The position numbers and the translations under genes were made by a program. A stretch of DNA of 64,000 bases from an uncultured Gemmatimonadales bacterium (GTDB lineage Bacteria > Gemmatimonadota > Gemmatimonadetes > Gemmatimonadales > GWC2-71-9). Of the stretch, positions 36,992 through 53,016 are shown one piece after another. Position 1 is the stretch's first letter, and each line of letters opens with the position of its first letter. Where the stretch lies: contig CAVQGA010000012.1 in assembly GCA_963711915.1 (NCBI GenBank), positions 31,841 to 95,840 of the forward strand, in the 5' to 3' direction. The notes beneath the pieces were generated by a model. The model was not told the origin of the DNA and made no database searches. It saw only the letters and a program-made list of their open reading frames with translations.

Positions 36992-37941
36992 CGGGCCCTG
37001 GGGTCCACCCAGCTCACCAGCACCTCCGCCAGCAGGTTCCCGAGCACCACCAGCACGGCGCTCACGGCCGTGGCCGCCATGACGACCGGGTAGTCGCGCG
37101 CCTGCACGCCCTCGACCAGGATGCGCCCCACACCGGGCCAGGCGAAGATCGCCTCGATGAACACCGCGCCCGAGAACAGGGTGGGGAGCGAGAGGCCGAG
37201 CAGGGTGACGACGGGGATGAGCGCGTTCCGGAGGATGTGGTGCAGGGTGATGCGGATCTCGGAGAGTCCCTTGGCCCGCGCGACGGTCACATACGGCGCG
37301 CCCGCCACGTCGAGCATGGCGCCCCGGACGAACCGCGCGGTGCCGCCGATACCCACGAGCGTGAGCGTCGCCAGCGGCAGCGCCAGGTGGCGGAGCCGGT
37401 CCGCCAGTTGCGCCGCCGGCGGCAGGAAATCGGCGTCGAACCCCGCGGCCCCGAACGCCGGCAGCCACCGGAGCCGGTAGGTGAACACCATCACCAGCAT
37501 GAGGCCGAGCCAGTAGCCGGGCAGCGCGAACAGGGTGACGCTCGCGACCGAGAGCGCCGTGTCGAGCCGCCCGCCGCGCACCGCCTGCACCGCGCCGACG
37601 GCGATGCCGATGAGGTAGCTCAGCACCAGCGAGACGCCCACCAGCCGGACCGTCGCAGGCCACGCCTGGCCCAGCATCGCCCGCACCGGCCGGCCGGTCG
37701 CGATGCTCGTGCCCCAGTCCCCGCGGGCGAACCGCCCGAGCCAGGTCACGTACTGCTCGGCGACCGGCCGGTCGAGCCCGAGCGCATGGCGCTGCGCCGC
37801 CACCTGGTCGGCCGTCGCGGCGGGGCCGACCAGCAGCAGGGCGGGGTCGCCGGGCGCGAGGCGGAGCAGCGCGAACATCAGCGTCACCACGCCGAGCACC
37901 ACGCCGAGGCCGCTGAGCGCGCGGCGAGCGAGCGGGAACAT
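36988..37941 (-). CDS. ABC transporter permease (DppB/OppB type)
   Basis: MFPLARRALSGLGVVLGVVTLMFALLRLAPGDP... Its stop overlaps the next permease's start (ATGA). Confidence 0.9.
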   Translation of the reverse strand: MFPLARRALSGLGVVLGVVTLMFALLRLAPGDPALLLVGPAATADQVAAQRHALGLDRPVAEQYVTWLGRFARGDWGTSIATGRPVRAMLGQAWPATVRLVGVSLVLSYLIGIAVGAVQAVRGGRLDTALSVASVTLFALPGYWLGLMLVMVFTYRLRWLPAFGAAGFDADFLPPAAQLADRLRHLALPLATLTLVGIGGTARFVRGAMLDVAGAPYVTVARAKGLSEIRITLHHILRNALIPVVTLLGLSLPTLFSGAVFIEAIFAWPGVGRILVEGVQARDYPVVMAATAVSAVLVVLGNLLAEVLVSWVDPRAR

Positions 37942-39388
37942 GCGGTGCAAGATACCTTTCGCCGTGCTCCGTCGCCCGCCCGTTGGGACGATTCTCCTCG
38001 CCGCCCTGCTCGCGTGCCAGCCCGTCGCATCGCGGCGTGGCGCCACGGTGCTGTTCGCGTCCGGCGCCGACCTCCAGAGCATGAACCCGCTGGTGACACT
38101 CCATCCGCTCGCCCGCCAGGTCCAGCGCTACGTCCTGCTCACGACGCTCGCCCGCTACGACTCGGCGCTCGTCCCGCGCCCCTACCTGGCGCGCGCCTGG
38201 AGCTGGTCGCCCGACCGGCGCGCGCTGACCTTTCATCTCGTGCCGGGCGTGCCGTGGGCCGACGGCGCGATCACGACCTCACGCGACGTCCGCTGGACGC
38301 TCGAGGCCGCTCGCGACCCGGCGGTCGGCTACCCGCGCGCGACCGAGCTCGCCGGTCTCGTGCAGATCGACACGCCCGACGACTCGACCGCGACCCTCCG
38401 CTTCACGTCGCCGCCCGCGCGCTTCCCCGACGTGCTTACCGATCTCGCGATCCTCCCGGCCCACCTGCTCGACACCGTCCCCCGGGACCGCCTGCGGCAG
38501 GCGGCGTGGAACGAGGCGCCCGTCGGGAACGGGCCGTTCCGGTTCGTGGCGCACGAGCCCAATCGCCGCTGGGTTTTCGCCGCCAACCCCGACTTTCCCG
38601 CCGCGCTCGGCGGGCCGCCCGCGCTCGAGCGCCTCATCATCGTGGTGGTGGACGAGCCCGCCACCAAGCTCGCGGCACTCACCGCCGGCGAGCTCGACTT
38701 CGCCGGGATCCAGCCCGCGCACGCGACGTTCGTCGCCCGCGATCCCGCGCTCGCCGTGCTGAGCTATCCGCTGCTCCTCACGTACGGCATCGTGCTCAAC
38801 ACCCGCCGCGCGCCGTTCGGCTTGCTCGCCGCGCGGCGGCGGCTCGATGCGGCGCTCGACCGGCGCGAGATCGTGGACGGCTATCTCTACGGCTTCGGAA
38901 CGCCCGCGCGCTCGCCGGTGCCGCCCGATGTCCCCGGCTATGTTCCGGTGTCCGGCGACAGCGACGCGCCCGCTCCCTCGGGTGGGCCGCTCCGGTTCGA
39001 GCTGCTCACGGTCGGGAGTGGCGAGGCGCCGCTCGAGCAGATGGTCCAGGCGCAGCTTCGCCCGGTCGGGATCGAGGCCACCATCCGCCAGCTCGAGCTG
39101 TCGGCGTTCCTCGCGCGAGTGTACGGTCCGGCGCACGACTTCGACGCCGCCGTGCTGGGCATCCCGGGCGACCCCGGACTCGGCTACCTTGGTCCGCTGG
39201 CCGCGCTCGCCGGCCTCGTGGCGCCTGGGGATCCGGCCGCGGCGCAGCGGCTGTTCGCCGATTCGCTGCCGGTGGTCGTGCTCTATCACGCGCGAGGGCT
39301 GCAGGGGATGAACCGACGGGTGCGCGGGGTCACGATGGATGTGCGCGGAGAGCTGCCCACGGTGCACGAGTGGCGGGTGGCGCCGTGA
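37940..39388 (+). CDS. ABC transporter substrate-binding lipoprotein, family 5 (peptide/nickel/oligosaccharide)
   Basis: Lipobox LLAALLAC, with the SBP_bac_5 pattern (GNGPFRFV..., YHARGLQGMNRRV). ATG 37940 overlaps the divergent permease ATG (CATG). An alternative GTG start is at 37964. Confidence 0.85.
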   Translation: MRCKIPFAVLRRPPVGTILLAALLACQPVASRRGATVLFASGADLQSMNPLVTLHPLARQVQRYVLLTTLARYDSALVPRPYLARAWSWSPDRRALTFHLVPGVPWADGAITTSRDVRWTLEAARDPAVGYPRATELAGLVQIDTPDDSTATLRFTSPPARFPDVLTDLAILPAHLLDTVPRDRLRQAAWNEAPVGNGPFRFVAHEPNRRWVFAANPDFPAALGGPPALERLIIVVVDEPATKLAALTAGELDFAGIQPAHATFVARDPALAVLSYPLLLTYGIVLNTRRAPFGLLAARRRLDAALDRREIVDGYLYGFGTPARSPVPPDVPGYVPVSGDSDAPAPSGGPLRFELLTVGSGEAPLEQMVQAQLRPVGIEATIRQLELSAFLARVYGPAHDFDAAVLGIPGDPGLGYLGPLAALAGLVAPGDPAAAQRLFADSLPVVVLYHARGLQGMNRRVRGVTMDVRGELPTVHEWRVAP

Positions 39389-40380
39389 GCGGCGCGTTCC
39401 GCGCGGCCGCGCCGGTACGGCTCGACTTCGCCGGCGGCTGGACCGACGTGCCGCCGTTCTCCGCACGCGAAGGCGGCGTGGTCGTCTCGGCCGCGATCGG
39501 CCTCCTGGCCCACGCCGAGGTGCGGCCCGGCGGGACCGGGCTCCGGCTCGTTGCCGACGACCTCGGCGCGAGGCTCGATCTGCCCGGCGACGCCGTGCCG
39601 TCGCCCACCGGCCCGCTGGCGCTGCTGCAGGCCGGGCTGCACCTGCTGCCGGTCGGGCCCTGCGCCCTCACTACCCGGTCGGACGCGCCGCCCGGCTCGG
39701 GGCTCGGCAGCTCGGGCGCGCTCGATGTCGCTATTGTAAGCGCGCTCACGGCCGCGCGCGGCGAGACGCTGGACACCAGCGGCGTGGCCCGCCTCGCCTG
39801 CCGGCTCGAGAACGTGGAGGCCGGCATCCCCGGCGGCCGACAGGACCAGTTCAGCGCCGCCTTCGGCGGTTTTCTCCGGCTCGCGTTCCACGACCCGGCC
39901 GTGACGGTCGAGCCGCTGAGCCTCGACCCCGCGCTCGCCGCCGAGCTCGAGCGCCGCATGCTGCTGGTCTACACCGGGGCGTCTCGCTTCTCGGGCGACA
40001 CCATCGGCCGCGTGATGCGCGCCTACGAGCGCCACGACCGCGGCGTCACCGCCGCGCTGCACGGTCTCCGCGAAGTCGCCGAGCGGATGACCGGTGCGCT
40101 CGGCGCGGGAGAGCTCGCCGCCGTCGGCGCGCTGCTCGACGCCAACTGGGCGCACCAGCGAACGCTCGACCCCGGCATGTGCACCCCGCGCATGGACCAG
40201 CTCAGCCGCGCGATGCGCGACGCCGGCGTGCTCGGCGGCAAGGCCGCCGGCTCGGGCGCCGGCGGCTGCATGTTCTTCCTGGGCCCCGACGATCCCGCCG
40301 CCGCCCGCGCGGCGGTCTCGTCGCTGGGGATGACCATCCTGCCGGTCCGCTGGTCGGCCGAGGGGGTGCGCCCGTGCTGA
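39385..40380 (+). CDS. GHMP-family sugar kinase (HddA/fucokinase-like)
   Basis: APVRLDFAGGWTDVPPF and PPGSGLGSSGA motifs. The GTG start overlaps the SBP stop (GTGA). Confidence 0.8.
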   Translation: MSGAFRAAAPVRLDFAGGWTDVPPFSAREGGVVVSAAIGLLAHAEVRPGGTGLRLVADDLGARLDLPGDAVPSPTGPLALLQAGLHLLPVGPCALTTRSDAPPGSGLGSSGALDVAIVSALTAARGETLDTSGVARLACRLENVEAGIPGGRQDQFSAAFGGFLRLAFHDPAVTVEPLSLDPALAAELERRMLLVYTGASRFSGDTIGRVMRAYERHDRGVTAALHGLREVAERMTGALGAGELAAVGALLDANWAHQRTLDPGMCTPRMDQLSRAMRDAGVLGGKAAGSGAGGCMFFLGPDDPAAARAAVSSLGMTILPVRWSAEGVRPC

Positions 40381-43103
40381 CCGCCGCGGAGCTGGACGCC
40401 CGGCGCGAGCTGCTCGGCGAATCGGCCGACCTCGCCGCGCTCGCCCGCCGGCTCGCCGAGCGCGCCGCGCCGCTGCTCGCGCGCCCGCCGATCATTCCGT
40501 CGGCCAAGGCGCTCCTCACGGCGGACGGCGGCGTCTGCCCCGACGACGGCGCCCCGCTCGAGTTCGACCCCTGGAGCCCCGCGGCCCACCGCTGCCCGCG
40601 CTGCGGCCGGAGCTTCTCCGGCGAGCGGCACGATCGCGCCTGGGCCCGGTTCCAGCACCTGTGGCTCGCCGAGCGCGCCGCGACGCTGGCCGCGCTGGCC
40701 GGTCTCGCGGGCCACGACGGCGCGGCCGCCCGCGCCGGCGAGATCCTCTCCGCCTACGCGTCGTCCTATGTCCAGTTCCCCAACCGCGACAACGTGCTCG
40801 GCCCGAGCCGGCTGTTCTTCTCCACCTACCTCGAGTCGATCTGGCTCACCAACTACCTCGCGGCCGCGGTGCTGCTCCGGGAGAGCGGCCGGCTCGCCGA
40901 CGCCGTGGCGGAGGGCGTGGCCGTCGTCGCCGACGAGGCCGCGAACGTCATCGGCGAGTTCGACGAGGGCTTCTCCAACCGGCAGACCTGGCACAACGCC
41001 GCGCTCGCGGCGATCGCCGTCTGGTTCGAGGACGAGGAGCTGCTGACCCGCGCGGTACAGAGCCCCACCGGCATGCTGGCGCACCTGGTGCAGGGCTTCG
41101 GCCCCGACGGTATGTGGTACGAGGGCGAGAACTATCATCTCTTCGCGCTCCGCGGCCAGCTCACCGCCATGGGCTGGGCGCGGCAGGCGGCCGTGGACCT
41201 GCTGGAGGACGAGCGGCTCGCCGCCCAGCTTGCCGCGGCCCTCCGCGCGCCGGCCCTGAGCGCGCTGCCCGACCACACCTTTCCCGCGCGCAAGGACTCG
41301 CGCTTCGGCGTCTCGCTCGCGCAGCCGATGTATCTCGAGCTCTGGGAGGTGGGCCTCGCCCGACTGGGCGACATGGAGTCCGATCTCTGGACCTGGCTCC
41401 GCGAGCTCTACGCCGCGCCGGCGCCGCCCGCGGGGACCTTCGACTCGTACCTGCACGAGGCCGGCGCGCCCGCGCCTTCGGCCCCGCGCACCCGCGCGGA
41501 TCTCTCGTGGTGGTCGTTGCTCGAGATGCTTCCCGAGCTGACCTCGGAGAGCCCGCCGTGGACGCCCGGCTCCGTGCTGCTCGAAGGGCAGGGGCTCGCG
41601 ATCCTCCGCGCCGGGGATCGCTACGCCAGCCTCGAGTGCGGCCGCTACGGCGGCGGCCACGGCCACCCCGACCGGCTGCATCTGACGCTCCACGCCGCCG
41701 GGCATCACTGGCTCGCCGATCCCGGGACCGGCTCCTACGTGAGTCCCGATCTCCTCTGGTATCGCTCGACCCTGGCCCACAACGCGCCCCGGCTGGACGA
41801 GCGCTCCCAGGCGCCGGGCGACGCGGAGTGCGACGCCTTCGAAGTGCGGGACGCCTGGAGCTGGACGCGCGGCCGCTACGGCGAGCTCTCCCGCACGCTG
41901 GTGGCGGGCGCGTACCTGCTCGACGTGGTCGAGCTCAACGCTCCGGAGGAGCGGACGCTGGAGCTGCCGTGGCACCCCGAGGGCCGGGTCGAGGTGGTGT
42001 CGGCCGGCGCGTGGGTCGCCGGCCGGCTGGACGACGGGTCGGTCGCGGAGGTCGAGCGGTTTGCCGCCTCCGGCGCCGGCGCCGTCGTGTTGCGCGCGCA
42101 CGCGGAGGACGGCGCGACGCTGACGCTGCAGCTCCTTTTCGACGGCGAGCTCTTCCGGGCGAGCGCCCCGGGCCGGCCCGACCGCGGCGGCCGGGAGACG
42201 TTCTACCTGATCCGGACCCGGGGCCGTGCCGCGCGCGTGATCGCGGCGCTCGAGAGCACGCGCGGCGTGCCGGCGCTGCGCGCGCTGCGCGCCGCGGGGC
42301 AGGTGATCGAGGTCGAGACCGCGAGCGGGGTGGACCGACACCTCGGCACGCCCGCCGGATGGGAGATCGAGGGCCCAGCGGGAAGCGTGCGCCTGGCCGG
42401 GCTCCGCCGCGCCGTCGCCGTGCCGCGGCCGCTGCTCGATCTCGACCGGCCCCAGCGGGCGGCGGGGATGGCGCCGCACGTGAATCCCGCCCCCGGGCTC
42501 GACGGCACCCTCGACGCATTCGACGCGCGGGCGCCGCTCACGCTCGACTACGAGGACCAGTACCGTCGGAGCGAGGAGCCCTACGGCGGCCCCGAGGAGT
42601 TCTCCGCCACGGCCGTCCTCAACTGGGACGAGGACGGCCTCTACCTCGGCGTGGACGTCGTGACGGCCGAGGTGATCGTGCGCGCCGGCGACGCGCCGCC
42701 GCTCCGGCTCGACAACGAGCCGGACGACATCCACGCCGACGGCCTCCAGGTCTATCTGCGGCCCGATCCGGCGGGCCCGGTCTACGGCTTTCTCGTCGTG
42801 CCGGCCGACGACGCGGGCCGGATCCGCGTCCGCCCCACCACCGGCGAGGCCGGCCGGCCCGAGATGGTGACGGGCGCCTGGCAGCCGACCGGGACCGGGT
42901 GGTCGATGTCGCTCCGCATCGCGCTCCCCGACTGGAGCCCGCGCGGCGGCGACATCCTCGGCTTCGATCTGCTGGTGAACGAGATGCACCCGGACCGGCT
43001 CCGCCGGGCGGGCCAGCTCGTCTGGAGCGGCGGCGGCGGATGGGCCTACCTCCGCGGCGACCGCCAGCCGGTCGACGCGTTCGGCACGGTCGAGCTCGGA
43101 TGA
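40374..43103 (+). CDS. heparinase II/III-like protein with an N-terminal Cys/His cluster and a C-terminal CBM9-like domain
   Basis: (alpha/alpha) toroid-like N-terminal half, GHGHPDRLHLTLHAAGHHWLADPGTGSY (heparinase II/III C-domain hallmark), and a C-terminal LDGTLDAF...LNWDEDGLYLGVDV...GFDLLVNE CBM9-like module. The GTG start overlaps the kinase end by 7 nt. Confidence 0.75.
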   Translation: MLTAAELDARRELLGESADLAALARRLAERAAPLLARPPIIPSAKALLTADGGVCPDDGAPLEFDPWSPAAHRCPRCGRSFSGERHDRAWARFQHLWLAERAATLAALAGLAGHDGAAARAGEILSAYASSYVQFPNRDNVLGPSRLFFSTYLESIWLTNYLAAAVLLRESGRLADAVAEGVAVVADEAANVIGEFDEGFSNRQTWHNAALAAIAVWFEDEELLTRAVQSPTGMLAHLVQGFGPDGMWYEGENYHLFALRGQLTAMGWARQAAVDLLEDERLAAQLAAALRAPALSALPDHTFPARKDSRFGVSLAQPMYLELWEVGLARLGDMESDLWTWLRELYAAPAPPAGTFDSYLHEAGAPAPSAPRTRADLSWWSLLEMLPELTSESPPWTPGSVLLEGQGLAILRAGDRYASLECGRYGGGHGHPDRLHLTLHAAGHHWLADPGTGSYVSPDLLWYRSTLAHNAPRLDERSQAPGDAECDAFEVRDAWSWTRGRYGELSRTLVAGAYLLDVVELNAPEERTLELPWHPEGRVEVVSAGAWVAGRLDDGSVAEVERFAASGAGAVVLRAHAEDGATLTLQLLFDGELFRASAPGRPDRGGRETFYLIRTRGRAARVIAALESTRGVPALRALRAAGQVIEVETASGVDRHLGTPAGWEIEGPAGSVRLAGLRRAVAVPRPLLDLDRPQRAAGMAPHVNPAPGLDGTLDAFDARAPLTLDYEDQYRRSEEPYGGPEEFSATAVLNWDEDGLYLGVDVVTAEVIVRAGDAPPLRLDNEPDDIHADGLQVYLRPDPAGPVYGFLVVPADDAGRIRVRPTTGEAGRPEMVTGAWQPTGTGWSMSLRIALPDWSPRGGDILGFDLLVNEMHPDRLRRAGQLVWSGGGGWAYLRGDRQPVDAFGTVELG

Positions 43104-44263
43104 GAGACGCCGTCGCGGGCTTCACGTCGACCGGCAGCAAGCGGCCCGAGGCGCTCTTCGGGGGCGCGGCGGCGGGCGTGCCCGACGCGATGCTACGCTC
43201 GTCGGGCTGCCGGGTGTGGGACGCCGAAGGCCGGGAGTATCTCGATCTCGTGATGGCGCTCGGCGCGGTGGCGCTGGGCTACGCGCACCCGGCGGTGACC
43301 GAGGCGGCGGTGCGCGCGGTCCGGGACGGCGCGGTCGGCTCGCTCCCGCCGGTGCTCGAGGCGGAGGTCGCGGCGGAGCTCCGGCGGCTGATCCCGTGGC
43401 TCGAGCGCGTGCGCTTCCTCAAGAGCGGCGCCGAGGCGATGGCGGCGGCGGTGCGCCTGGCGCGGACCGCGACCGGACGGGAGCGGGTGCTGGGTTGCGG
43501 CTACCACGGCTGGCTCGACTGGTGCCAGGCCGACACGAAGGGCGTGCCGGGCTCGACGCGCGCGCTCTATGCCGAGCTGCCGTTCAACGACGCCGCGCGC
43601 ACCCGCGAGCTGATCCGCACCGCCGGCGACTCGCTCGCGGCGGTGGTGTTCGAGCCGGTGATCCTGGCGGCGCCCGATCCCGACTGGCTCGCCGTGCTCC
43701 GCGAGGAGACCGCGCGCGCCGGCGCGATCCTGATCGCCGACGAGATCAAGACCGTCGGCCGCCTGGCCGTGGGGGGCGCGTGCGAGCGCTACGGCGTGCG
43801 GCCCGATCTCGTCGTCGTCGGCAAGGCGATCGCCAACGGCTTTCCGCTCGCCGCCGTCGGCGGTCGGGCGGAGATCATGGACGCGGTCGGGCGAACGTGG
43901 ATCTCGTCGACGCTCGCCACCGAGTGGGTGTCGCTCGCCGCCGCGCAGGCCACGCTGGGGGTGCTCTCGTCCGAGCGGGTGCCCGAGCATCTCGGCCGCG
44001 TGGGAAGCCGGCTGCTCGCTGGGTTTGGTGGGCTGGCGGAGCGGCACGGGAGGGTGGTGAGCGGGGTGGCGGGGGTGCCGGAGATGTGCTGTCTCGTGTT
44101 TCACCGGGAGAGCGCGGGAGCGGCGGTCGCGGTCGAGGCCGCGCGAAGGGGGCTGCTGTTCAAGCGCGGGGCGTACAACTTCGTGTCGTTGGCGCATGAC
44201 GAAGCTGCGGTGGATCGCGCGTTGGAGGTGCTGGAGGAGGCACTCGGCGCGGTGGCGCGCTGA
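43100..44263 (+). CDS. class-III (GSA-aminomutase-like) PLP aminotransferase
   Basis: LKSGAEAMAAAVRLAR, IADEIKT and VVGKAIANGFP (candidate Schiff-base Lys). The ATG overlaps the upstream stop (ATGA). Confidence 0.85.
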   Translation: MRDAVAGFTSTGSKRPEALFGGAAAGVPDAMLRSSGCRVWDAEGREYLDLVMALGAVALGYAHPAVTEAAVRAVRDGAVGSLPPVLEAEVAAELRRLIPWLERVRFLKSGAEAMAAAVRLARTATGRERVLGCGYHGWLDWCQADTKGVPGSTRALYAELPFNDAARTRELIRTAGDSLAAVVFEPVILAAPDPDWLAVLREETARAGAILIADEIKTVGRLAVGGACERYGVRPDLVVVGKAIANGFPLAAVGGRAEIMDAVGRTWISSTLATEWVSLAAAQATLGVLSSERVPEHLGRVGSRLLAGFGGLAERHGRVVSGVAGVPEMCCLVFHRESAGAAVAVEAARRGLLFKRGAYNFVSLAHDEAAVDRALEVLEEALGAVAR

Positions 44264-44276
44264 TCGGAGATGTGGG

Positions 44277-44383
44277 CATGCCGCCGCAGCTCGCCGTCGC
44301 GCGGCGGGCCCTTCGGTCGCTGCGGTGCGCTTCGAGCGCTGGGATCGCGCAGGGACCTGAGGGCGCACCGACGCTCCCTGCGG
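44277..44383 (+). repeat. approximately 107-nt structured repeat, copy A
   Basis: Starts 14 nt after the aminotransferase stop. See copies B and C. Confidence 0.8.
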
Positions 44384-44454
44384 GACCACCGCGCGCCGGC
44401 GGCTGCTCGCCTTTGTCCGATTCGCCGGGCGCGTCGCTTGAGCGAGGATGCGGC

Positions 44455-44954: not shown

Positions 44955-45755
44955 GTGCTGATCGACGTCCACGCGCACTTCCTGCACGACCGCACGCCCC
45001 GCGCCGACTGGGACGCCCGGAACGCGAGCCGGCTCCGCGCGGGGGAGCGCGTGGGGATCACGGTCCACGTCGCCTCCATTCTCGGAAGCTGGGGCGCGAC
45101 GTCGCCCACCTACTTTCCCTCGCCTGCCGACCTCCGCTACGGCAACGACCGCCTGCTCGCGCTCCAGCGCGAGCACCCCTCGCGCATCCGCGGCTACGCC
45201 GCCGTCAACCCCAACTACACCGAATCGGCGCTCGCGGAGATCGCGCGCTGTCTCGACGCGGGCATGATCGGGATCAAGCTCGCCGCCAGCCGGCGGGCCG
45301 ACGATCCGCTGCTCGACCCGATCTGCCGGGTGGCCGCGGCGCGCGGCGTGCCCGTGCTGCAGCACGTCTGGCAGCATCGCCGGCGCGACTACCCGGGCCA
45401 GGAGGCGTCCGACGCCCATGAGCTCGGCGCCCTGGCGGCCCGCCATCCCGACGTCGCCTTCCTGCTGGCCCACATCGGCGGCGGCGGGGACTGGCTGCAC
45501 TCGCTCCCGGCCATCCGTCCGCTCGCCAACGTGTACGTGGACCTGTCGGGCAGCGGCGTGGACGGCGGGATGCTGGAGGCGTGCATCGACGCCGTGGGCG
45601 TGGGCCGGCTGCTCTGGGGGTGCGACCTCACCATCGAGACCGGCTGGGCCAAGCTCCGCTATCTCGAGCACCTGCTGCCGGCGGAGGAACAGGAGCGCGT
45701 CCGCTGGCGGAATGCCGCCGGCATCTTCCCGTCAGGCGCCTTTCCCTCCGACTGA
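44955..45755 (+). CDS. amidohydrolase-2 (PF04909-like) TIM-barrel hydrolase
   Basis: N-terminal LIDVHAHFL (HxH), LLAHIGGGGDW and LLWGCDL motifs. GTG start. Confidence 0.75.
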   Translation: MLIDVHAHFLHDRTPRADWDARNASRLRAGERVGITVHVASILGSWGATSPTYFPSPADLRYGNDRLLALQREHPSRIRGYAAVNPNYTESALAEIARCLDAGMIGIKLAASRRADDPLLDPICRVAAARGVPVLQHVWQHRRRDYPGQEASDAHELGALAARHPDVAFLLAHIGGGGDWLHSLPAIRPLANVYVDLSGSGVDGGMLEACIDAVGVGRLLWGCDLTIETGWAKLRYLEHLLPAEEQERVRWRNAAGIFPSGAFPSD

Positions 45756-46528
45756 TGCGCATCGACGTCAACGCCTTCGTCGGCTCGTATCCCTACCGCC
45801 GCGTGCCGGGCACGTCGCCCCGGGCGGTGCTCGCGGCCATGGATCGGGTCGGCGTGGACGAGGCCTGGGTCACGCACCTCCCCGGCGTGTTCTGGCGCGA
45901 TCCGACCGAGGGCAACGCCTGGCTGCTCGAGGCCACCCGCGAGGAGCGGCGCCTCCGCCCCGTGCCGGCGGTGCATCCGGGCCTCGCAACCTGGCGCGAC
46001 GCGCTTCGCGCGGCGGTGGATGCCGGCGTGCCTGCCGTCCGCGCCGATCCCACGTTCTACGGGCTCGATCCCGCCGGCGCCGCGATGCGCGCGCTCGCCG
46101 CGGCCTCTGGCGAGGCCGGCATGCCGCTCGCGCTCGCCGTGCGGTTCGAGGACGGGCGCCAGCGGCACCCGAACGACGGCGCGAGCGAGCTTCCGGCCGC
46201 CGCCGTCCGGGCGCTCATCCGGAGCGACCCGCGGGTCCGCCTGCTCGTGACCCACGCCGACCGGCCGTTCATCGAGGAGGTGCATTTCGGCTCGACGCCC
46301 GCGGAGGCGGCCCGGATCTGGTGGGACATCTGCTGGATCTGGGGACCGCCCGAGGACCACCTGCAGACGCTGCTCGGCACGGTCGGCGCCGCGCGGTTCG
46401 TCCTCGGCACCGGCCAGCCGCTCCGGCTGCCGGAGAACGCCGGCGCCAAGCTCGACCTGCTCGAGATCTCCGCGGCCGACCGCGCCGCGATCGAGAGCGC
46501 CAACGCGCTCGCCCTCGGCGCCCGGTGA
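45755..46528 (+). CDS. amidohydrolase-2-like paralogue lacking the N-terminal HxH motif
   Basis: MRIDVNAFVGSYPYRRVP occupies the position of IDVHAH. It keeps the TIM-barrel-like pattern (LLVTHAD..., FVLGTGQPL). The ATG shares 1 nt with the upstream TGA. Confidence 0.6.
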   Translation: MRIDVNAFVGSYPYRRVPGTSPRAVLAAMDRVGVDEAWVTHLPGVFWRDPTEGNAWLLEATREERRLRPVPAVHPGLATWRDALRAAVDAGVPAVRADPTFYGLDPAGAAMRALAAASGEAGMPLALAVRFEDGRQRHPNDGASELPAAAVRALIRSDPRVRLLVTHADRPFIEEVHFGSTPAEAARIWWDICWIWGPPEDHLQTLLGTVGAARFVLGTGQPLRLPENAGAKLDLLEISAADRAAIESANALALGAR

Positions 46529-46860
46529 TGCCGCTCGATCGCGAGCGGGAGCACTACCGCATCAGGTACCCCACCGGGGCGCGCCCCAGGTTCGTCAGCG
46601 AAACGCTCGACCGGCAGGTGATCGACCTCTGCGAGCAGGGCCTGCGCTACCGCATGTGCGACGGTGAGATCCGGGCCCTCGGCGACGAGGTGGAAGGCCT
46701 TGTCCGGCTTCGCCGCGGGGAGGAGATCCGGGTGCTCGGCACCGTCGTGCGGATGAGCGAGCGCGAGGTGGCGCTCCGGCTCCCGGTGGGCGTGCCGCTC
46801 CGGATCGTGCTCGAGGAGCAGCGCTACCTCCGTGAGCATCATCGGGGCTCGGCGTGGTGA
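46528..46860 (+). CDS. stand-alone PilZ domain protein
   Basis: RxxxR (REHYR), followed about 20 aa later by DLCEQG (a D-x-S/A-x-x-G variant with Cys). 110 aa. The ATG shares 1 nt with the upstream TGA. Confidence 0.6.
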   Translation: MPLDREREHYRIRYPTGARPRFVSETLDRQVIDLCEQGLRYRMCDGEIRALGDEVEGLVRLRRGEEIRVLGTVVRMSEREVALRLPVGVPLRIVLEEQRYLREHHRGSAW

Positions 46861-46864
46861 GCGC

Positions 46865-47743
46865 GTGAGCGTCGCGGATCGTCTGGCCGGTGGGCTCGTT
46901 CCCGCGGTGCCGGTCCCGTTCCGCGGCACGGCGCTCGACGAGGCCGCCCAGCGCGGCTACGCCCGCTGGATGGCGGCGCAGCCCGTGGCCGGCGTCGCGG
47001 TCTGGTCGCATACCGGGCGCGGCCCGCACCTCGCCGCCGACCAGCGGCGCGAGGTGCTCGACGTCTGGCGCGAGGCGCTGCCCGACCGGCTGGTCATCGC
47101 CGGCGCGCGCGACGTCACCATGGCGATCGAGGCCCGCCGCGGCCGGGCCGACGCGCTGCTCGCCTTCCCCGAGCGGAGCGACCCGGTGGGCTACCATCGC
47201 CGGCTGAGCAGGGAGCTGCCGGTCCTCGCCTTCTGGCTGTACGAGGCCGCGGGCGGCGTGGCCTACGACGACGCCACGCTGCACGCCATTCTCGATCTCC
47301 CGGACGTAGTCGGCATCAAGGTGGCGACGCTCGACTCGGTCATGACTTTCCAGCGGCTCGCGGCCCTCCTCCGCGCGCATCCCGACAAGCTGCTGGTCAC
47401 CGGCGAGGACCGCTTCCTCGGCTACTCGATCATGCTCGGCGCGCGGGCCGCGCTCGTGGGGATGGGGGCCGCGCTTCCCGACATGCAGGCCGGCCTGCTG
47501 CGCGCGCACGCCGAGCGCGACTGGCACACGTTCCACACGCTCTCCGAGCTGTGCGACCGGCTCGCCGAGGTCACCTTCATCCCGCCGATGGAAGGCTACG
47601 TGCGCCGCATGCTCTGGGCGGCGGCGGCCGACGGGGCGCTGCCCCCCGAGGCCTGCGACGATCCCTGGGGCCCCGCGCTCCCGGCCGAGGAGCGCGCGGC
47701 CGTCGAGCGCGTGGTGCGCGATGCCCGGCCGGCTCGCGCGTGA
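46865..47743 (+). CDS. dihydrodipicolinate synthase/N-acetylneuraminate lyase family (DapA-like) protein
   Basis: LVPAVPVPF..., VVGIKVATLD (candidate Schiff-base Lys). GTG 46865 is 4 nt after the PilZ stop. Confidence 0.7.
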   Translation: MSVADRLAGGLVPAVPVPFRGTALDEAAQRGYARWMAAQPVAGVAVWSHTGRGPHLAADQRREVLDVWREALPDRLVIAGARDVTMAIEARRGRADALLAFPERSDPVGYHRRLSRELPVLAFWLYEAAGGVAYDDATLHAILDLPDVVGIKVATLDSVMTFQRLAALLRAHPDKLLVTGEDRFLGYSIMLGARAALVGMGAALPDMQAGLLRAHAERDWHTFHTLSELCDRLAEVTFIPPMEGYVRRMLWAAAADGALPPEACDDPWGPALPAEERAAVERVVRDARPARA

Positions 47744-48863
47744 TTTCGAGCGGTTCGGCGACGCGCCCCCGCGCGACCCGGCCGCGTACGTGCGCGAGAC
47801 CTACGGCATCGACCTGACGGCGCGCTACCTGGGCTACGCGATTCCGCATCCGATCGGCAAGGGGTCGGGCCAGCTCTCGCTCAACGCCGACCAGCTCGAG
47901 AGCGATCGCGCGTCGGGGCTCGCGTTCGTGGTGCTCAAGACCGTGATCGCCGAGGATGCCGCCGGCGAGCGCAGCATGGGCGCCTGGGCCGTCCACGAGA
48001 CGAAGATGCGGGTCGAGCCCCGGCCCTCCGCCGCGGGCCGGGCGGGGTGGACCGTGACCTGGAAGGGTCGGGGCTGGGACCGCTCGTTCGACGACTACCT
48101 GGCGCTGGTCCGCGTCGCCGGCGACCTCACGCGGAGCGGCGCGATGCTCGCCGTGCCGTCGGTCAAGTACCACCTGCCGACGCTCGACCAGCCGTTCCGC
48201 GAGGCCGAGTACCGCCATACCACCCGGGGCCTGGCCCGCGCGTGGGGCGCGGGCGACCTGCCGATCGAGAAGGACTTCTCGCCCACGCTCGCGGGCGATG
48301 CGCTGGCCGACGAGCGCGATCGGATCCTGCGCTGGCTCAAGGAGGTCCCCGGCCAGATCCGCTCGGCGGCCGGACCCACCGCCGTCCGCCTCGCGCTCAA
48401 ACTGATGAACGCCCGGTTCGACGACGGCTTCCAGCGCGAGATGATGGCCGCCGCCGCCGCCGCCGACGCGCTGGTGTGCTTCAACCGGCTCTGGGACCCG
48501 GAGGCGGGCGTGGCCTATGGCGGCTGGGACCTGAGCGAGCGCAACCTGCGCGTGCTCGCCTCCGCGCGGGTCGACGGCGGGCACGCGCCGCTCGTGGGCA
48601 CCGGCAACGTCTGCTCCGGCCGCCTCGTGCTCGACTACGCCCGCGCCGGGTGCGAGAGCGTCGAGCTGCACACCTTTTTCCAGCTCCCCCTCACCGAATA
48701 CCCCGCCGCCGCCGGTACCCGCACCCAGCGCGCCCTGCACGCGCTGCTGTTTCACCCGGCGGACGGTTTGGTGGCCGGCATGCTGGAGCTCGAGCGCGAG
48801 GGGGTGCTGCATCGGAGGGGCGGGGAGCTGAGGTTTCTGGATGTGTGTGGGGGAGGAGCGTGA
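47721..48863 (+). CDS. dihydroorotate-dehydrogenase-like (FMN TIM-barrel) family protein
   Basis: YGIDLTARYLGYAIPHPIGKGSGQLS and VVLKTV are reminiscent of the DHOD/DHPD N-terminus. The rest is divergent. The start overlaps the DapA-like gene by 23 nt. Confidence 0.5.
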   Translation: MPGRLARDFERFGDAPPRDPAAYVRETYGIDLTARYLGYAIPHPIGKGSGQLSLNADQLESDRASGLAFVVLKTVIAEDAAGERSMGAWAVHETKMRVEPRPSAAGRAGWTVTWKGRGWDRSFDDYLALVRVAGDLTRSGAMLAVPSVKYHLPTLDQPFREAEYRHTTRGLARAWGAGDLPIEKDFSPTLAGDALADERDRILRWLKEVPGQIRSAAGPTAVRLALKLMNARFDDGFQREMMAAAAAADALVCFNRLWDPEAGVAYGGWDLSERNLRVLASARVDGGHAPLVGTGNVCSGRLVLDYARAGCESVELHTFFQLPLTEYPAAAGTRTQRALHALLFHPADGLVAGMLELEREGVLHRRGGELRFLDVCGGGA

Positions 48864-48904
48864 TGGTGCGCGGAATGGTGTTGGAGGTGGAAGGTGGCGC
48901 TCCT

Positions 48905-48986
48905 GTCATCCCGAGCGCAGCGAGGGATCTTGCCCGGGAATGGTTCGAACGCCGCGACCAAGATCCCTCGCTGCGCTCGGGATGAC
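48905..48986. repeat. REP-like palindromic element, copy 2
   Basis: GTCATCCCGAGCGCAGCGAGGGATCTTGCCCGGG...CAAGATCCCTCGCTGCGCTCGGGATGAC. Confidence 0.85.
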
Positions 48987-49007
48987 AGCGGCTGCACTCG
49001 GGCCCAG

Positions 49008-49050: not shown

Positions 49051-49054
49051 GACT

Positions 49055-50186
49055 ATGCGCCTGACCCACATCGACCTCCACGAGCTCGCCCTCCCCCTCA
49101 GCGAGCCGTTCACGATCAGCGGCGGCACCATGACCGTCCGCCGCTCGCTCGTCGTGGTGCTCCACGACGCCGACGGCCACGTGGGCTACGGCGAGTCCCC
49201 GCCGTTCGAGCTGCCGTTCTACTCCGAGGAGACGCTCGGCTCCGCGCGGCTGCTGCTGGCGGAGCTCCTGATCCCGCGCCTGCTCAACCGCGAGCTCGAG
49301 GGGCCCGAGGCGGTGGACGCGCTGCTGCGCGAGGGCGTCCGCGGCAATCCGTTCGCCCGCGCGGCGCTCGAGACCGCGGCCTGGGATCTCGAGGCGCATC
49401 GCCGCGGCCTCGGGCTCGCCGCGCTGCTCGCCGAGCGGCTGGGCGTCACGCCGGCGGCGCGGATCGTCTGCGGCGTGGCGCTCGGCATCCCGGCCGACCG
49501 TTCGACCGGGACGCTCCGCCGCTGGATCGCCGACGCGCTCGGCCACGGCTACCGGCGGGTCAAGATCAAGGTCGCCCCCGGCTGGGACGCGGAGCCGGTC
49601 GCGGGCGGCGCGCGCCGCGCTCGCCGGCACCGGCATCCCGCTCACCGTGGACGCGAACGGCGGCTACGCGTGGCCGGAGCACGAGTCCAACCTGCGCGCG
49701 CTGGACGAGGCCGAGCTGCTGTACATCGAGCAGCCGCTCGCGCCCGACGAGCTGGTGGGTCACGCACGTCTGGACGAGACGCTCCGGACGCCGGTGTGCG
49801 TGGACGAGACGCTGCACGATGCCGGCTGGGCGCGCCAGCTCGTGGCGCTCGGCGGACCCAAGGTCTGGAACGTGAAGGTGCACCGGATGGGCGGGCTCAC
49901 CGAGGTGTGCCGCGTCGTCCGGATCGCGCGCGAGGCGGGCGTCCGGCTCTGGGCCGGGACGATGCCCGAATCCGGCCTCGGCTCGCAGGCCGCCCTCGCC
50001 GCCGCGGCGCTGCCGGGCTTCGTCTTCCCGTCCGACCTGGAGCCGAGCACCCGCTGGTTCGGCCCGGGCGTGGACGTGATCGAGCTCCGGATGGACGCCG
50101 ACGGGACCATGGAGGTGCCGGGCAGCTCGATCGCCGGGCGGCTGGACCAGGCGGTGTTCCGCCGGGCGAGCCGGCGGTTACATTAG
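49055..50186 (+). pseudogene. enolase-superfamily (OSBS / N-acylamino-acid racemase / dipeptide epimerase-like) gene with one frameshift near 49603
   Basis: The N-terminal part is in the frame of ORF 49055 (..YRRVKIKVAPGWDAEPV). The continuation ..AARAALAGTGIPLTVDANGGY...LLYIEQPL...VCVDETL... is in the frame of ORF 49647..50186. The switch falls in the gcGGGcggc run. Confidence 0.7.
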
Positions 50187-50359: not shown

Positions 50360-50370
50360 GCGGCCGGGGG

Positions 50371-53016
50371 GTGGCCGGGCGGACCATCCACCTCATTCCG
50401 CACACCCACTGGGACCGGGAGTGGTACCTCCCCCGCGCCGCCTTCGTCGCCCGCCTGGTCCCCGCACTCGACGACCTGCTCGACCGCCTCGACGGCTCCC
50501 CCGACTTTCGCAGCTTCTTTCTCGACGGCCAGACCGTGCTGCTGGAGGACTACCTCCGCATCCGCCCCGAGCAGCGCGACCGGGTCGCCGCCTTCGTGCG
50601 CGCCGGCCGGCTCCAGGTCGGCCCCTGGTACGTGCTCGCCGACGAGCTGGTGCCCTCGGGCGAGTCGCTGGTCCGGAATCTCCTGCTCGGCCGGGACGAC
50701 GCCGAGCGGCTGGGCGGGCGGGCCGACGTGCTGTACTCGCCCGACGCGTTCGGGCATCCGGCCGTCTGGCCCGCGCTCGCGCTCGAGTTCGGCATCCGGT
50801 ACGGCGTGCTCTGGCGCGGGCTCGGCGGCGAGCCGGGGCAGGAGGGCGATCTCTATCCGCTGGCACGCGCCCGACGGCCGCGCGATCCTGCTGCACCACC
50901 TGCCGCCCGACGGGTACGAGGCGGGGTCGGGACTGGTCGACGATCCGCCCGCCTGCGCCAGGCGTGGCCGGCGCTCGCGGCCGTGCTGGCGGGCCGCGCG
51001 GCCACGTCGCATCTGGCCGTCCCGGTGGGCGCGGACCACCACGCCGCGCCCGCCGCGATCGGCCGCGTGCGCGACCTGGTCGCCGCGCTCGCGCCCGACG
51101 CGGAGGTCCGGGTCTCGCGCTTCGACGAGTACTTCCGCGCCGCCGAGGCGGAGGCGGGCGGCGTGCCCGCGCTCCACGGCGAGCTGCGCTGGAGCTACGG
51201 CTACACCTGGACGCTGCAGGGCGTGCACGGGACCCGCGCGGCGCTCAAGCGCCGCCACGCCGAGGCCGAGCTGCTGCTCGAGCGCACGGCCGAGCCGCTC
51301 GCGGCGCTGGCCGCGGCGGACGGCCGGGGCGACCGGCGGCCGCTGCTCCGGGACGCGTGGCGCGCGCTCGTGCGCTCGCAGTTCCACGACTCGATCGGCG
51401 GCTGCACGTCGGACGCGGTGGCGCGCCGCGTGGCGGTGCGGCTGGGCGACGCGGCGGAGGCGGCGGGCGAGATCGCGCGCGCGAGCCTCGACGCGCTCAC
51501 CGGCAACGCGCCCGACCGCGCCCGCGACCGCCCCGAGGACACCGCGCCCCGGCTCGTGCTCTGGAATCCCGCCGCGCGCCCGCGCGACGGCGGCGTGGTG
51601 ATCACCGACCTCACCTGGTTCCGGCGCGACGTGCTGGTCGGGCCGCCGGGCGCCCGCGAGCCGCGGACCGGCGAGGGCGCGCGGGCGATCTCCCTCCTCG
51701 GTCCTGACGGGCCGATCATGCTGCAGCCGCTCGGCCGACGATCCGCGCACGAGCGGCTCGACGCGCCGCGGCACTACCCCGACCAGGACGAGGTGGACGT
51801 GGTGCGGGTGGCGTTCCGCGCGCCGCCGCTCCCGGGGCTCGGCGTCGCGGTGCTGAGTCCGGTCGAGCGGGAGCGCCAGGCCGCCGAGTCCGGCGTCCGC
51901 GCGGGGTCGCGGAGCCTCGACAACGGTCTGGTCGCGCTCACGGTCGGCCGCGACGGCACGGTGACGCTGGCCGACCGCCGCACGGGTCTGCTCTATCCCG
52001 CGCTGCTCGGCCTCGAGTCCGCCGGCGACGCCGGCGACACCTACACCTGGGCGCCACCCGCGCGCGACCGGGTCCGCCGGCTCGGCGCGCCGGTCGCCGT
52101 GCGCATGCTGGCGCGCGGGCCGCTGGTCGGGGCGCTCGACGTGCGCGGCCGGCTCGCCTGCGCCAACGGCTGGGTGGACGCGCGGCTCGTGCTCAGCCTG
52201 CATGCCGGAAGTCCCGCCCTCCGCTGCACGCTCCACCTCGACAACCGCGCGACCGGCCACCGGCTCCGGCTCCGGGTGCCGACCGGCGTGCCGTCGATCG
52301 CGGCCGTGGCGGGGAGCCAGTTCGGCGCCGCCGAGCGCCCGGCCGTCGCGGTCGAGCCCGGGCGCTATCCGCGGGAGACGCCGGTGGCCACCGCGCCGGC
52401 GCAGCGCTACGTCGCCGTGGCGCGCGGACCGCGGGGCCTCGCCCTGCTGGCGCCGGGGTTCTTCGAGTACGAGCTGGCCCCGAACGGCGATCTGCGCGTG
52501 ACGCTGCTCCGCGCCGTGGGCGAGCTCTCCCGGCCCGACCTGCCGACCCGCCCCGGCCACGCGGGCTGGCCCGCGGCCACGCCCGAAGCCCAGTGCCCCG
52601 GCCCCGACCGGCTCCAGCTCGCCGTCGCTCCGGTCGAGGCCGCCGCCCTCGGCGCGGGGAGCGCGCTGCCCGAGCTGTGGGAGGATCTCTTCCTCCCGCC
52701 GCGCGCGCTCTGGCTGCGGCAGGCCACGCCGCTGAGCGTGCCCGCGTGGGACGTCCGGCTCGAGGGGGCGGGCCTGGTGTTCTCCTCGGCCAAGCCCGCC
52801 GACGTGGGGGATGGGCTCGTGCTCCGGTGCTACAACGCCCGCGCGGAGGCGGCCGACGGCACCTGGCGGCTCGGCCGGCGGATCGCGCGGGCGGTGCTGG
52901 CGCGGGCCGACGAGCGCGACGGACGCGATCTCCCGCTGGCGTCCGACGGCCGGTCGGTCCGCTTCCGGGCGGGGCCTCGGGGGATCGCCACGGTGATCGT
53001 GTCGGTGTGGGGCTGA
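50371..53016 (+). CDS. GH38 alpha-mannosidase-like protein (contains an internally frame-shifted segment of about 95 nt)
   Basis: LIPHTHWDREWY N-terminal GH38 motif, PDAFGHP and QFHDSIGG. GTG start. See the finding on 50857-50953. Confidence 0.85.
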   Translation: MAGRTIHLIPHTHWDREWYLPRAAFVARLVPALDDLLDRLDGSPDFRSFFLDGQTVLLEDYLRIRPEQRDRVAAFVRAGRLQVGPWYVLADELVPSGESLVRNLLLGRDDAERLGGRADVLYSPDAFGHPAVWPALALEFGIRYGVLWRGLGGEPGQEGDLYPLARARRPRDPAAPPAARRVRGGVGTGRRSARLRQAWPALAAVLAGRAATSHLAVPVGADHHAAPAAIGRVRDLVAALAPDAEVRVSRFDEYFRAAEAEAGGVPALHGELRWSYGYTWTLQGVHGTRAALKRRHAEAELLLERTAEPLAALAAADGRGDRRPLLRDAWRALVRSQFHDSIGGCTSDAVARRVAVRLGDAAEAAGEIARASLDALTGNAPDRARDRPEDTAPRLVLWNPAARPRDGGVVITDLTWFRRDVLVGPPGAREPRTGEGARAISLLGPDGPIMLQPLGRRSAHERLDAPRHYPDQDEVDVVRVAFRAPPLPGLGVAVLSPVERERQAAESGVRAGSRSLDNGLVALTVGRDGTVTLADRRTGLLYPALLGLESAGDAGDTYTWAPPARDRVRRLGAPVAVRMLARGPLVGALDVRGRLACANGWVDARLVLSLHAGSPALRCTLHLDNRATGHRLRLRVPTGVPSIAAVAGSQFGAAERPAVAVEPGRYPRETPVATAPAQRYVAVARGPRGLALLAPGFFEYELAPNGDLRVTLLRAVGELSRPDLPTRPGHAGWPAATPEAQCPGPDRLQLAVAPVEAAALGAGSALPELWEDLFLPPRALWLRQATPLSVPAWDVRLEGAGLVFSSAKPADVGDGLVLRCYNARAEAADGTWRLGRRIARAVLARADERDGRDLPLASDGRSVRFRAGPRGIATVIVSVWG

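Follow-up and report, generated by a model that had tools for sequence, protein, structure and literature searches.

A cluster of genes for transport and carbohydrate-related enzymes has been analysed in a 64,000-nucleotide stretch (here called the window) of contig CAVQGA010000012.1 from an uncultured Gemmatimonadales bacterium. On the plus strand, a family-5 solute-binding lipoprotein (SBP), a GHMP sugar kinase, a protein with a lyase fold, a class-III aminotransferase, two amidohydrolase-like proteins (AH2a and AH2b), members of the DapA, DHOD and enolase groups and a GH38 enzyme are encoded in succession, preceded by two divergent permease genes. The arrangement is best explained as a catabolic locus of accessory character in the order Gemmatimonadales, in which several linked blocks take the place of a single operon. 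There is about an even chance that the cluster serves to import an acidic, uronate- and mannose-containing oligosaccharide and to dismantle it in the cytoplasm via a non-canonical lower pathway. A glycan or amino-sugar-acid route had been put forward in the original prediction and remains the best reading of the sequences, considering the PL17 fold and catalytic residues of the lyase-like protein, the linkage of the GH38 gene and the contexts in which AH2a and AH2b recur. Literature searches for this combination of enzymes agree with the prediction in that they turned up no described pathway containing it.

The sequences establish the genes, their families, the conserved catalytic residues and the conserved linkage, and putative functions have been assigned by homology and context. 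With a GC content of about 75% in the window, raw lists of open reading frames (ORFs) were useless, and genes were called by a GC3 frame plot together with Pfam and NCBIfam scans. The predicted gene list and order on the plus strand were borne out, except for the enolase-superfamily gene and a small ORF next to it. The features of the locus are the following:

36140..36985, minus strand: permC, ABC permease of the DppC/OppC type (Pfam BPD_transp_1 1.9e-23, OppC_N)
36988..37941, minus strand: permB, ABC permease of the DppB/OppB type (Pfam BPD_transp_1 9e-39, BPD_transp_1_N)
37940..39388, plus strand: SBP, family-5 solute-binding lipoprotein with lipobox LLAC (SBP_bac_5 6.6e-57)
39385..40380, plus strand: GHMP sugar kinase of the HddA/WcbL/fucokinase branch (GHMP_kinases_N and _C)
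40374..43103, plus strand: PL17-like lyase-fold protein (Pfam Alginate_lyase, Hepar_II_III_C and CBM9-like)
43100..44263, plus strand: class-III aminotransferase (AT, also AT3), 387 aa (Aminotran_3 2e-48)
44261..44566, no strand: two tandem copies of a repeat of about 130 nt in the spacer between AT3 and the acidic ORF (repeat search)
44739..44948, plus strand: acidic small ORF of 69 aa (coding-type GC3 signal)
44955..45755, plus strand: AH2a, Amidohydro_2 enzyme (PF04909 1.6e-24)
45755..46528, plus strand: AH2b, divergent Amidohydro_2 paralog lacking HxH (hhalign against AH2a)
46528..46860, plus strand: stand-alone PilZ domain gene (PF07238 1.5e-5)
46865..47743, plus strand: DapA-like, class-I aldolase-type member of the DHDPS/N-acetylneuraminate-lyase (NAL) family (PF00701 1.7e-6)
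47721..48863, plus strand: DHOD/DPD-like FMN TIM-barrel protein (AlphaFold model and Foldseek)
48894..48997, no strand: REP-like palindrome with 39-nt arms in the spacer between the DHOD-like and racemase-type genes (inverted-repeat search)
49055..50186, plus strand: enolase-superfamily gene of the NSAR/OSBS (MLE subgroup) type, frameshifted (MR_MLE_N, MR_MLE_C)
50371..53016, plus strand: GH38 alpha-mannosidase-family enzyme, MngB-like (GH38 Pfam domains)

Proposed import and cytoplasmic glycan enzymes

According to the proposed mechanism, the family-5 lipoprotein and the two DppBC-type permeases would import an oligosaccharide with a 4-linked uronic acid and alpha-mannosyl (or manno-configured) residues, with ATPases supplied by another locus. 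Once the oligosaccharide is in the cytoplasm, the PL17-like enzyme would remove the uronate by beta-elimination, or act through the same carbanion chemistry, while GH38 would remove the mannoside and the HddA-like GHMP kinase would trap a released sugar by phosphorylation. An open-chain 4-deoxy-5-keto-uronate, or an amino-bearing analogue, would then enter a non-canonical lower pathway comprising, in unspecified step order, the class-III aminotransferase, AH2a/AH2b, the DapA-family class-I aldolase/dehydratase, the DHOD/DPD-like flavoprotein and the NSAR/OSBS-type enzyme. Neither the KDPG/KHG aldolase Eda (PF01081) nor KduI was found in the genome, which is 99.6% complete, and this indicates a need for another lower route.

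The AlphaFold model of the lyase-like protein (pLDDT 76.5) consists of an (alpha/alpha)6 toroid and an antiparallel beta-sandwich, and its top ten Foldseek matches are all PL17 enzymes (4e-20 to 4e-19), with Alg17c and AlyA3 as the best, followed by dermatan-sulfate epimerase 1 (DS-epimerase 1) at 1.6e-15. In Alg17c, Y450 acts as the tyrosine base and Y258 as the tyrosine acid, H415, D433 and H464 bind the metal, and N201 and H202 neutralise the uronate carboxylate (PMC8600288). A profile alignment places Alg17c N201, Y258, Y450 and H413 on N202, Y254, Y455 and H429 of the cluster protein, and the metal ligands H415/D433/H464 on its H431/D449/H469, all of these residues being invariant, the tyrosines and metal ligands in 11 orthologs. 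The protein also has an N-terminal Cys/His ribbon, with invariant C55...C74xxC77, and a C-terminal CBM9-like domain. As a separate observation, a second Hepar_II_III_C protein is encoded in the genome, on contig C19:9691-10419 (150 bits, ORF of 729 aa).

The GH38 enzyme scores above cut-off for PF01074, PF09261 and PF07748, and has PF17677 at 18.6 bits, below the 22-bit cut-off of that family. Its N-terminus, which reads HLIPHTHWDREWY, contains the HxHxD metal motif, and its NCBIfam match is to mannosylglycerate hydrolase (MngB; 1.6e-100), with 337 bits against an equivalog cut-off of 1138. No signal peptide was found on reading the N-termini of the lyase-like protein and GH38, which means that the substrate must be imported as an oligomer. 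For the GHMP kinase, the NCBIfam match to HddA (1.6e-36) reaches 126 bits against an equivalog cut-off of 600; its PDB matches are 4usk (5e-41) and 3k85 (1e-36), which group it with WcbL and fucokinase in one branch.

The original prediction had counted uptake among the functions of the plus-strand run. This holds for the binding protein, but the permeases (36140-37941) are divergent on the minus strand and the ATPases lie elsewhere. The adjacency of permC and permB is kept in all loci long enough to show both genes. The only Opp/Dpp-type ATPase pair of the genome, recognised by its oligo_HPY domain, is on contig C18:295450-296814, and the ATPase-less permease pair presumably shares it. The likely ATG codons of permB (37941) and SBP (37940) overlap as CATG, where relatives have about 20-200 nt, which leaves no room between the genes for a pair of promoters; the transcripts may be leaderless, the promoters may lie within the adjacent gene, or SBP may start later (GTG 37964). 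Among NCBIfam models, SBP has weak, below-cut-off matches only, to the Opp, Dpp and Nik binders of oligopeptides, dipeptides and nickel. Family-5 binders bind oligosaccharides in other bacteria.

Candidate enzymes of the lower pathway

The aminotransferase is below every NCBIfam cut-off and has comparable PDB scores to glutamate-1-semialdehyde (GSA) aminomutase (2e7u, 1e-50) and to an aminoglycoside C-6' aminotransferase (7lm0, 5e-46). A role as the housekeeping HemL was discarded, given that the true HemL is encoded on contig C13 (592 bits, above cut-off).

In AH2a, residues D4, H6, H8, H137, H173 and D224 are invariant and the HxH/His/His/Asp set of metal ligands is complete; its best PDB relatives by profile are ACMSD-type decarboxylases, at only 2.5e-7. 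AH2b has no Pfam match and reads DVNAF in place of HxH. It is nevertheless a remote paralog of AH2a (hhalign probability 96%, E 2.9e-9), and PF04909 is present in 27-44% of the members of its ESM Atlas clusters. A profile search with AH2b gave 1883 representative clusters, fused AH2a-AH2b proteins among them, and AH2b was found to be an obligate neighbour of AH2a. The pair recurs in unrelated lineages beside glycoside hydrolase, TonB receptor, sulfatase and amino-sugar genes. In metagenome loci with a distant AH2b relative, the AH2a-AH2b pair adjoins either a GH2-like gene with a LamG protein or a TonB-dependent receptor. On five haloarchaeal megaplasmids, a fused AH2a-AH2b gene of about 560 aa is surrounded by sulfatase, DegT, RidA, PIG-L deacetylase, Gfo/Idh/MocA, ABC transporter, SIS and KbaZ-type genes; two of these five loci also contain an MR/MLE gene and a class-III aminotransferase 33-36% identical to that of the cluster (E 1e-57 and 7e-70). 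The haloarchaeal loci thus link AH2a/AH2b independently to each other, to such an aminotransferase and to glycan or amino-sugar catabolism. In one of them, on a Halomontanus rarus plasmid (L139, 7302-10689), two fused amidohydrolases are adjacent, one of them AH2a-AH2b and the other AH2b-like-then-AH2a-like; this fused pair adjoins the class-III aminotransferase and MR/MLE genes in a locus that also has SIS, KbaZ and BadF-type kinase genes.

The DapA-like protein is recognised by PF00701 (27.4 against a cut-off of 22.1), with PDB matches of 1e-7 to DHDPS/NAL. Its Schiff-base lysine K152 (in GIKVATLD) and Y126 are invariant in 13 orthologs, and HTGRG stands in place of the GTTGE motif. The DHOD-like protein has no Pfam match at E 0.01, PF01180 included, and PF01180 occurs in only 11-19% of the members of its ESM Atlas clusters. 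Its AlphaFold model (pLDDT 89.8) matches the DPD FMN domain (5e-14) and DHODs (4e-12) in Foldseek with 13-19% identity, and the conserved GTGNVCSGR...GCESVQLHT region aligns to the DHODH C-terminus, which contains the FMN-phosphate motifs. Judged by the structural model, this protein is family-like in fold, but it is not a recognised DHOD/DPD member by sequence model.

The enolase-superfamily member had been predicted as a 434-aa ORF followed by a small hydrophobic ORF. The real gene instead occupies 49055-50186 and codes for 377 aa if one extra base is ignored: Pfam finds MR_MLE_N in the same frame as 49055 but MR_MLE_C in that of 49647-50186, five orthologs carry both enolase domains in one frame, and the window has one additional base near 49600 (49580-49620). 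The 434-aa ORF and the small hydrophobic ORF are both artefacts of this frameshift, and the latter is not a gene. The extra base could mean a pseudogene or an assembly error. Assembly error is plausible, since tblastn maps of loci from related metagenome-assembled genomes (L022, L023 and L026) give similar split matches in other cluster genes and indel errors seem common there. The type of enzyme also had to be revised from a sugar-acid dehydratase to the N-succinylamino-acid racemase/OSBS (NSAR/OSBS) type, on account of the PDB matches of an intact ortholog (L021:6046-7173), namely 3mwc at 2e-80 and NSAR/OSBS entries at 1e-54 to 1e-62. The protein contains a KxK motif, and its TIGR01928 score, summed over the two halves, is about 198 bits, slightly short of the cut-off of 200.65. 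A role as MenC, the OSBS of menaquinone synthesis, was rejected, as no MenB scores above cut-off in the genome (141 against 343 bits).

Block structure and distribution of the locus

All of the junctions quoted in the original prediction are as it described them on reading the sequence: GTGA is found at 39385 and ATGA at 43100, genes overlap by 7 nt at 40374, by 1 nt at both 45755 and 46528 and by 23 nt at 47721, and one further pair is separated by 4 nt (46861-46864). The conclusion drawn from them, of one 15-kb translationally coupled operon, did not survive, as junction statistics and spacers divide the unit into at least three or four blocks. Three spacers interrupt it in the window, with 475 nt containing repeats (44264-44738), 191 nt containing a hairpin (48864-49054) and 184 nt before GH38, this last gap having been put at about 11 nt before the true stop of the preceding gene (50186) was recognised.

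Gap statistics were computed over 80 species-level loci. The first three genes of the run are tightly joined, with median gaps of 8 nt for SBP/GHMP and -7 nt for GHMP/lyase (30 nt or less in 57 of 57 loci). The lyase/aminotransferase gap is bimodal, as is that between aminotransferase and AH2a, which is 30 nt or less in 23 of 52 loci. AH2a/AH2b has a median of -1 nt (30 nt or less in 46 of 47), and DapA/DHOD one of -23 nt, equal to the 23-nt overlap in the window. Medians of 6.5 nt for AH2b/DapA and 17 nt for DHOD/racemase indicate co-transcription of the AH2 genes with the last three genes of their block. The racemase/GH38 gap has a median of 614 nt and exceeds 180 nt in every one of 13 loci, so that GH38 is never coupled. 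The unit is therefore one of linked blocks, comprising SBP-GHMP-lyase, the aminotransferase, AH2a-AH2b-DapA-DHOD-racemase and a movable GH38.

Several elements lie between or within these blocks. The repeat of about 130 nt has a third, inverted copy at 36003-36089, 3' of permC, and is missing from the AT3/AH2a spacer in most relatives; each copy has the same orientation relative to the gene 5' of it. The REP-like palindrome, of which a second copy follows GH38 (53077-53159), folds into a 30-bp perfect stem (-108 kcal/mol, z = -6.18) that has no U-tract and is flanked by short purine- or pyrimidine-skewed repeats. The spacer from AT3 to the acidic ORF has no excess structure against shuffles (z = -1.36), and a sigma-70 and terminator scan of the window was uninformative at 75% GC. 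The N-terminus of the acidic ORF, MSPRKPTVDD..DDVDDEDG, is kept in 13 species-level loci, always directly before AH2a, and the ORF looks like a real small gene and a lineage-specific insert. Its interpretation as an in-frame read-through extension of AH2a was dismissed, because its frame relative to AH2a varies among the 13 loci. PilZ directly follows AH2b in about 5 of about 80 relatives (L051, L067, L079, L084 and L106; 46-75% identity) and has a homolog several kb further downstream in L085 and L099; most loci contain none. A SpoU-type RNA methyltransferase gene was also observed between the lyase-like and aminotransferase genes in family f2 and several other lineages (L032:7681-8436, L064:12745-13554). 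PilZ, the acidic ORF and the SpoU methylase are lineage-specific inserts, the first two being optional and at fixed positions.

The window proteins were mapped onto 20 fetched regions of 20 kb and onto the 80 species-level loci. Absence of this neighbourhood from related genomes had been named beforehand as the outcome that would count against the prediction, which fared well here, since about 80 species-level loci have the cluster either in full or as its core. The lyase-like gene occurs in 55 of 61 relatives. Among 300 genomes of the phylum (at least 90% complete), 145 encode the lyase-like protein, distributed as 95 of 125 in family f1, 46 of 71 in f2, 3 of 3 in f3 and none of 101 in nine other families; the tally includes three unpublished genomes (G102, G217 and G194), each with a match, and without them the figure is 142 of 297, which changes nothing. 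In this survey, the lyase family was thus found in one order only and is patchy there, a distribution that fits an accessory catabolic trait. The source names of close homologs place the genome in Gemmatimonadales. Searches for homologous proteins gave nothing beyond close relatives from this order, with names such as 'hypothetical' and 'heparinase II/III family', and the lyase loci kept in the genome-contig search are from Gemmatimonadota only. The DHOD-like protein had no match in 72,556 plasmids.

Four arrangements have been distinguished. Type 1, as in the window, has permC-permB divergent from SBP-GHMP-lyase-AT-AH2a-AH2b-DapA-DHOD-racemase-GH38. Type 2 has the same genes with GH38 beyond the permeases, and includes the distant locus L125, whose lyase is 39% identical and which still has DapA-DHOD-racemase. 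In type 3, of families f2 and f3, the core stops at AH2b and is followed by alternative complex III genes; these large downstream genes had been considered as a polysaccharide utilisation locus of the SusC/SusD type, a candidate that was dropped once they were identified. Type 4 has a core that stops at the aminotransferase, with a two-component system and pqq genes next in line; what follows the aminotransferase in loci that lack AH2a/b (a histidine kinase, a sigma-54 regulator and pqqBCDE) gives no pathway clue. GH38 is always linked to the cluster, at its end in this genus and beyond permC in other lineages, and this linkage on either side points to selection on linkage rather than inherited order. 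In locus L053 (CAWHZQ010000010.1), a second, inverted set of DHOD, DapA, AH2b and AH2a matches was seen after DapA-DHOD-racemase(N), which could be an inverted duplication or a misassembly.

Alternative readings and known systems

Several observations weigh against the import and cytoplasmic breakdown of a uronate- and mannose-containing oligosaccharide. All family-level matches are below the curated NCBIfam cut-offs. The PL17-like fold also houses epimerases (DS-epimerase 1, 1.6e-15), and the carboxylate-neutralising His202 of Alg17c is replaced in the lyase-like family by an invariant arginine, R203, which, going by the alignment, might take over this function. Family f2 lacks the GHMP kinase and has the SpoU methylase inside the core, and some 10 loci have no AH2a/AH2b beside the core. 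Searches of five complete f2/f3 genomes did not find DapA-DHOD-racemase, so the lower pathway would be optional. In this genome, moreover, the racemase-type gene has a frameshift. A racemase-type enolase, an Opp/Dpp-type binder and an aminotransferase would fit peptide or N-acyl-amino-acid metabolism equally well. Within the oligosaccharide reading, a more far-reaching version appears doubtful, namely that the locus encodes an undescribed cytoplasmic route for unsaturated uronates or amino-uronates, starting from the 4-deoxy-5-keto-uronate left by exolytic beta-elimination, that replaces the KduI/KduD or DEH-reductase, KdgK and Eda steps. As parts of this version and sharing its tentative standing, AH2a and AH2b might form a two-subunit amidohydrolase with one metal-bearing and one metal-less half, and a core of AH2a/AH2b plus transaminase might be common to haloarchaeal loci for sulfated or amino-glycans.

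The cluster might also be a mosaic of separate modules that act on different substrates, these being a glycan core, an AH2a/AH2b and aminotransferase module, and a DapA-DHOD-racemase module with amino-acid or N-acyl-amino-acid chemistry. Such a mosaic is considered fairly unlikely. GH38, the transporter, the GHMP kinase and the lyase-like protein make up its glycan core. It would account for loci in which the core lacks AH2a/b (about 10) and for those of f2/f3 in which core and AH2a/b lack DapA-DHOD-racemase and are followed by alternative complex III, for the failure to find the DHOD-like protein in those five complete f2/f3 genomes, for AH2a/AH2b pairs standing alone in other lineages, for the racemase/OSBS type of the enolase member, and for the repeat spacers and strong hairpin exactly at the block borders of the window. 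On the other hand, blocks that are present always have the same place, order and orientation, even in L125 with its 39% identical lyase, the short AH2b/DapA (6.5 nt) and DHOD/racemase (17 nt) medians indicate co-transcription across modules, and the haloarchaeal loci again unite a fused AH2, a class-III aminotransferase and an MR/MLE gene. A different substrate altogether is implied by salvage of peptides, glycopeptides or N-acyl-amino-acids, where a modified peptide (such as an O-mannosylated peptide or a cell-wall fragment) would enter by Opp/Dpp-type import and be deglycosylated by GH38, an option that seems improbable; in the same improbable scheme, the amidohydrolases, NSAR-type racemase, aminotransferase and DapA-like enzyme would handle the D- or L-amino-acid parts. 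The family-5 binder matches best, if weakly, to proteins that bind oligopeptides, dipeptides or nickel, N-acylamino-acid racemases are nearest to the enolase member among solved structures, the DHDPS family also acts in hydroxyproline and amino-acid catabolism, and the haloarchaeal loci contain an M14 peptidase and carbon-nitrogen hydrolases. Salvage would however leave unexplained the largest and most conserved protein of the cluster, with its PL17 fold and intact catalytic tyrosines and metal site. The partners that usually accompany NSAR, be it a peptidase, a succinyl- or acetyltransferase or an M20 deacylase, were not detected in the cluster by Pfam scans; family-5 binders are also known for oligosaccharides, and AH2 pairs adjoin GH2, sulfatase and sugar-modifying genes.

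The material degraded could also be the cell's own, which is regarded as quite improbable. Instead of external foraging, the cluster would then turn over or remodel an envelope glycan or exopolysaccharide, or a mannosyl compatible solute such as mannosylglycerate. This would agree with the MngB-like character of GH38 (1.6e-100, below cut-off), with the use of the HddA-like kinase branch in building activated heptose and fucose precursors, with the repeated insertion of a PilZ gene (c-di-GMP receptor type) in the cluster and with its vertical retention in most genera of the order. Pfam scans nonetheless detected no nucleotidyltransferase, glycosyltransferase or exporter in or beside the cluster, the conserved partner is an importer, and between a quarter and a third of the good same-family genomes, as well as whole genera, lack the lyase family, which would be unusual for envelope housekeeping.

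Gemmatimonadales are abundant soil bacteria that have, to our knowledge, almost no experimentally defined carbon metabolism. This cluster is among the most conserved accessory loci of the order and holds at least four families with no assigned activity, these being the Zn-ribbon PL17-like protein, the AH2a/AH2b pair, the DHOD-like flavoprotein and an NSAR/OSBS relative in a non-menaquinone, non-racemase context. Several results of this analysis are new: the frameshift, with a gene model corrected for it; the division into blocks by junction statistics; the finding of the lyase family in one order only; the comparison with PL17 at the level of single residues; the lack of Eda and KduI; and the fused AH2a-AH2b forms with their haloarchaeal contexts. 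If the lower pathway is indeed a new way to lead lyase products into central metabolism, it would represent a fourth route for hexuronate catabolism, and protein families seen again in haloarchaeal glycan loci would thereby gain a function. Of practical use are the corrected gene model, the block structure and a short list of enzyme activities that are testable in cultured relatives.

Known systems resemble the cluster in part. The haloarchaeal loci (in Halomontanus rarus, Haloprofundus salinisoli, Natronosalvus, Natrononativus and Halosolutus) have the same AH2a/AH2b order, with identities of 29-35% and 27-36%, and ABC transporters and sugar-modifying enzymes around the fused AH2. They differ in the fusion of the two halves and in lacking PL17-like, GH38, GHMP, DapA-like and DHOD-like genes, with sulfatases, DegT, RidA and PIG-L instead, and, being uncharacterised, they inform on context but not on function. 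The aminoglycoside C-6' aminotransferases (the GenB family, 7lm0/7lld, and NeoN, 6cbk) and GSA aminomutase share the class-III fold of the cluster's aminotransferase. In aminoglycoside pathways, a flavoenzyme produces the sugar aldehyde that enzymes of this kind use as substrate. The cluster enzyme, at 387 aa, is shorter than HemL and has a catabolic-looking context. The NSAR/OSBS family (PDB 1sja, 2zc8, 1wue and 3mwc) is similar to the intact ortholog over its full length (2e-80 to 3mwc) and shares the KxK motif, whereas the cluster member has no MenB in its genome, lacks the usual acyltransferase and M20 deacylase partners and is found coupled with the genes of a DapA-like enzyme and a DHOD-like flavoprotein.

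The oxidative hexuronate pathway of Agrobacterium tumefaciens proceeds through Udh, Gli, Gci, KdgD and KGSA dehydrogenase (PMC6353982). It is the nearest precedent for the lower part of the proposed route. The same three superfamilies take part, with a lactone isomerase of the amidohydrolase superfamily (Gli), a cycloisomerase of the MLE subgroup of enolases (Gci) and a dehydratase/decarboxylase of the DHDPS family (KdgD). The enolase member of the cluster is, however, far nearer to NSAR/OSBS (1e-54 to 1e-80) than to 4ggb/4hpn (2.4e-14), which are presumably Gci, and AH2a is nearest to ACMSD-type decarboxylases, with no Gli structure among its PDB matches. Pfam scans found neither an SDR nor an aldehyde dehydrogenase in the cluster, so that the uronate and KGSA dehydrogenases are missing, and a class-III aminotransferase and a DHOD-like flavoprotein are present instead.

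For the upper part, the closest systems are the exolytic PL17 oligoalginate lyases Alg17c of Saccharophagus degradans and AlyA3 of Zobellia galactanivorans. In sequence, the lyase-like protein resembles these only very slightly (phmmer 4e-7, 14-19% identity). It has Arg in the position of His202, carries the Cys/His ribbon at its N-terminus and the CBM9-like domain at its C-terminus as additional parts, and belongs to a cluster without the DEH reductase, KdgK and Eda genes usual in PL17 systems. Nonetheless, it shares the two-domain fold (4e-20, target-normalised TM 0.69) and keeps the Asn, the two tyrosines of the catalytic site, His413 and all three metal ligands, and the cluster is alike in its logic to importer-coupled cytoplasmic oligo-uronide lyases, which act on imported oligomers.

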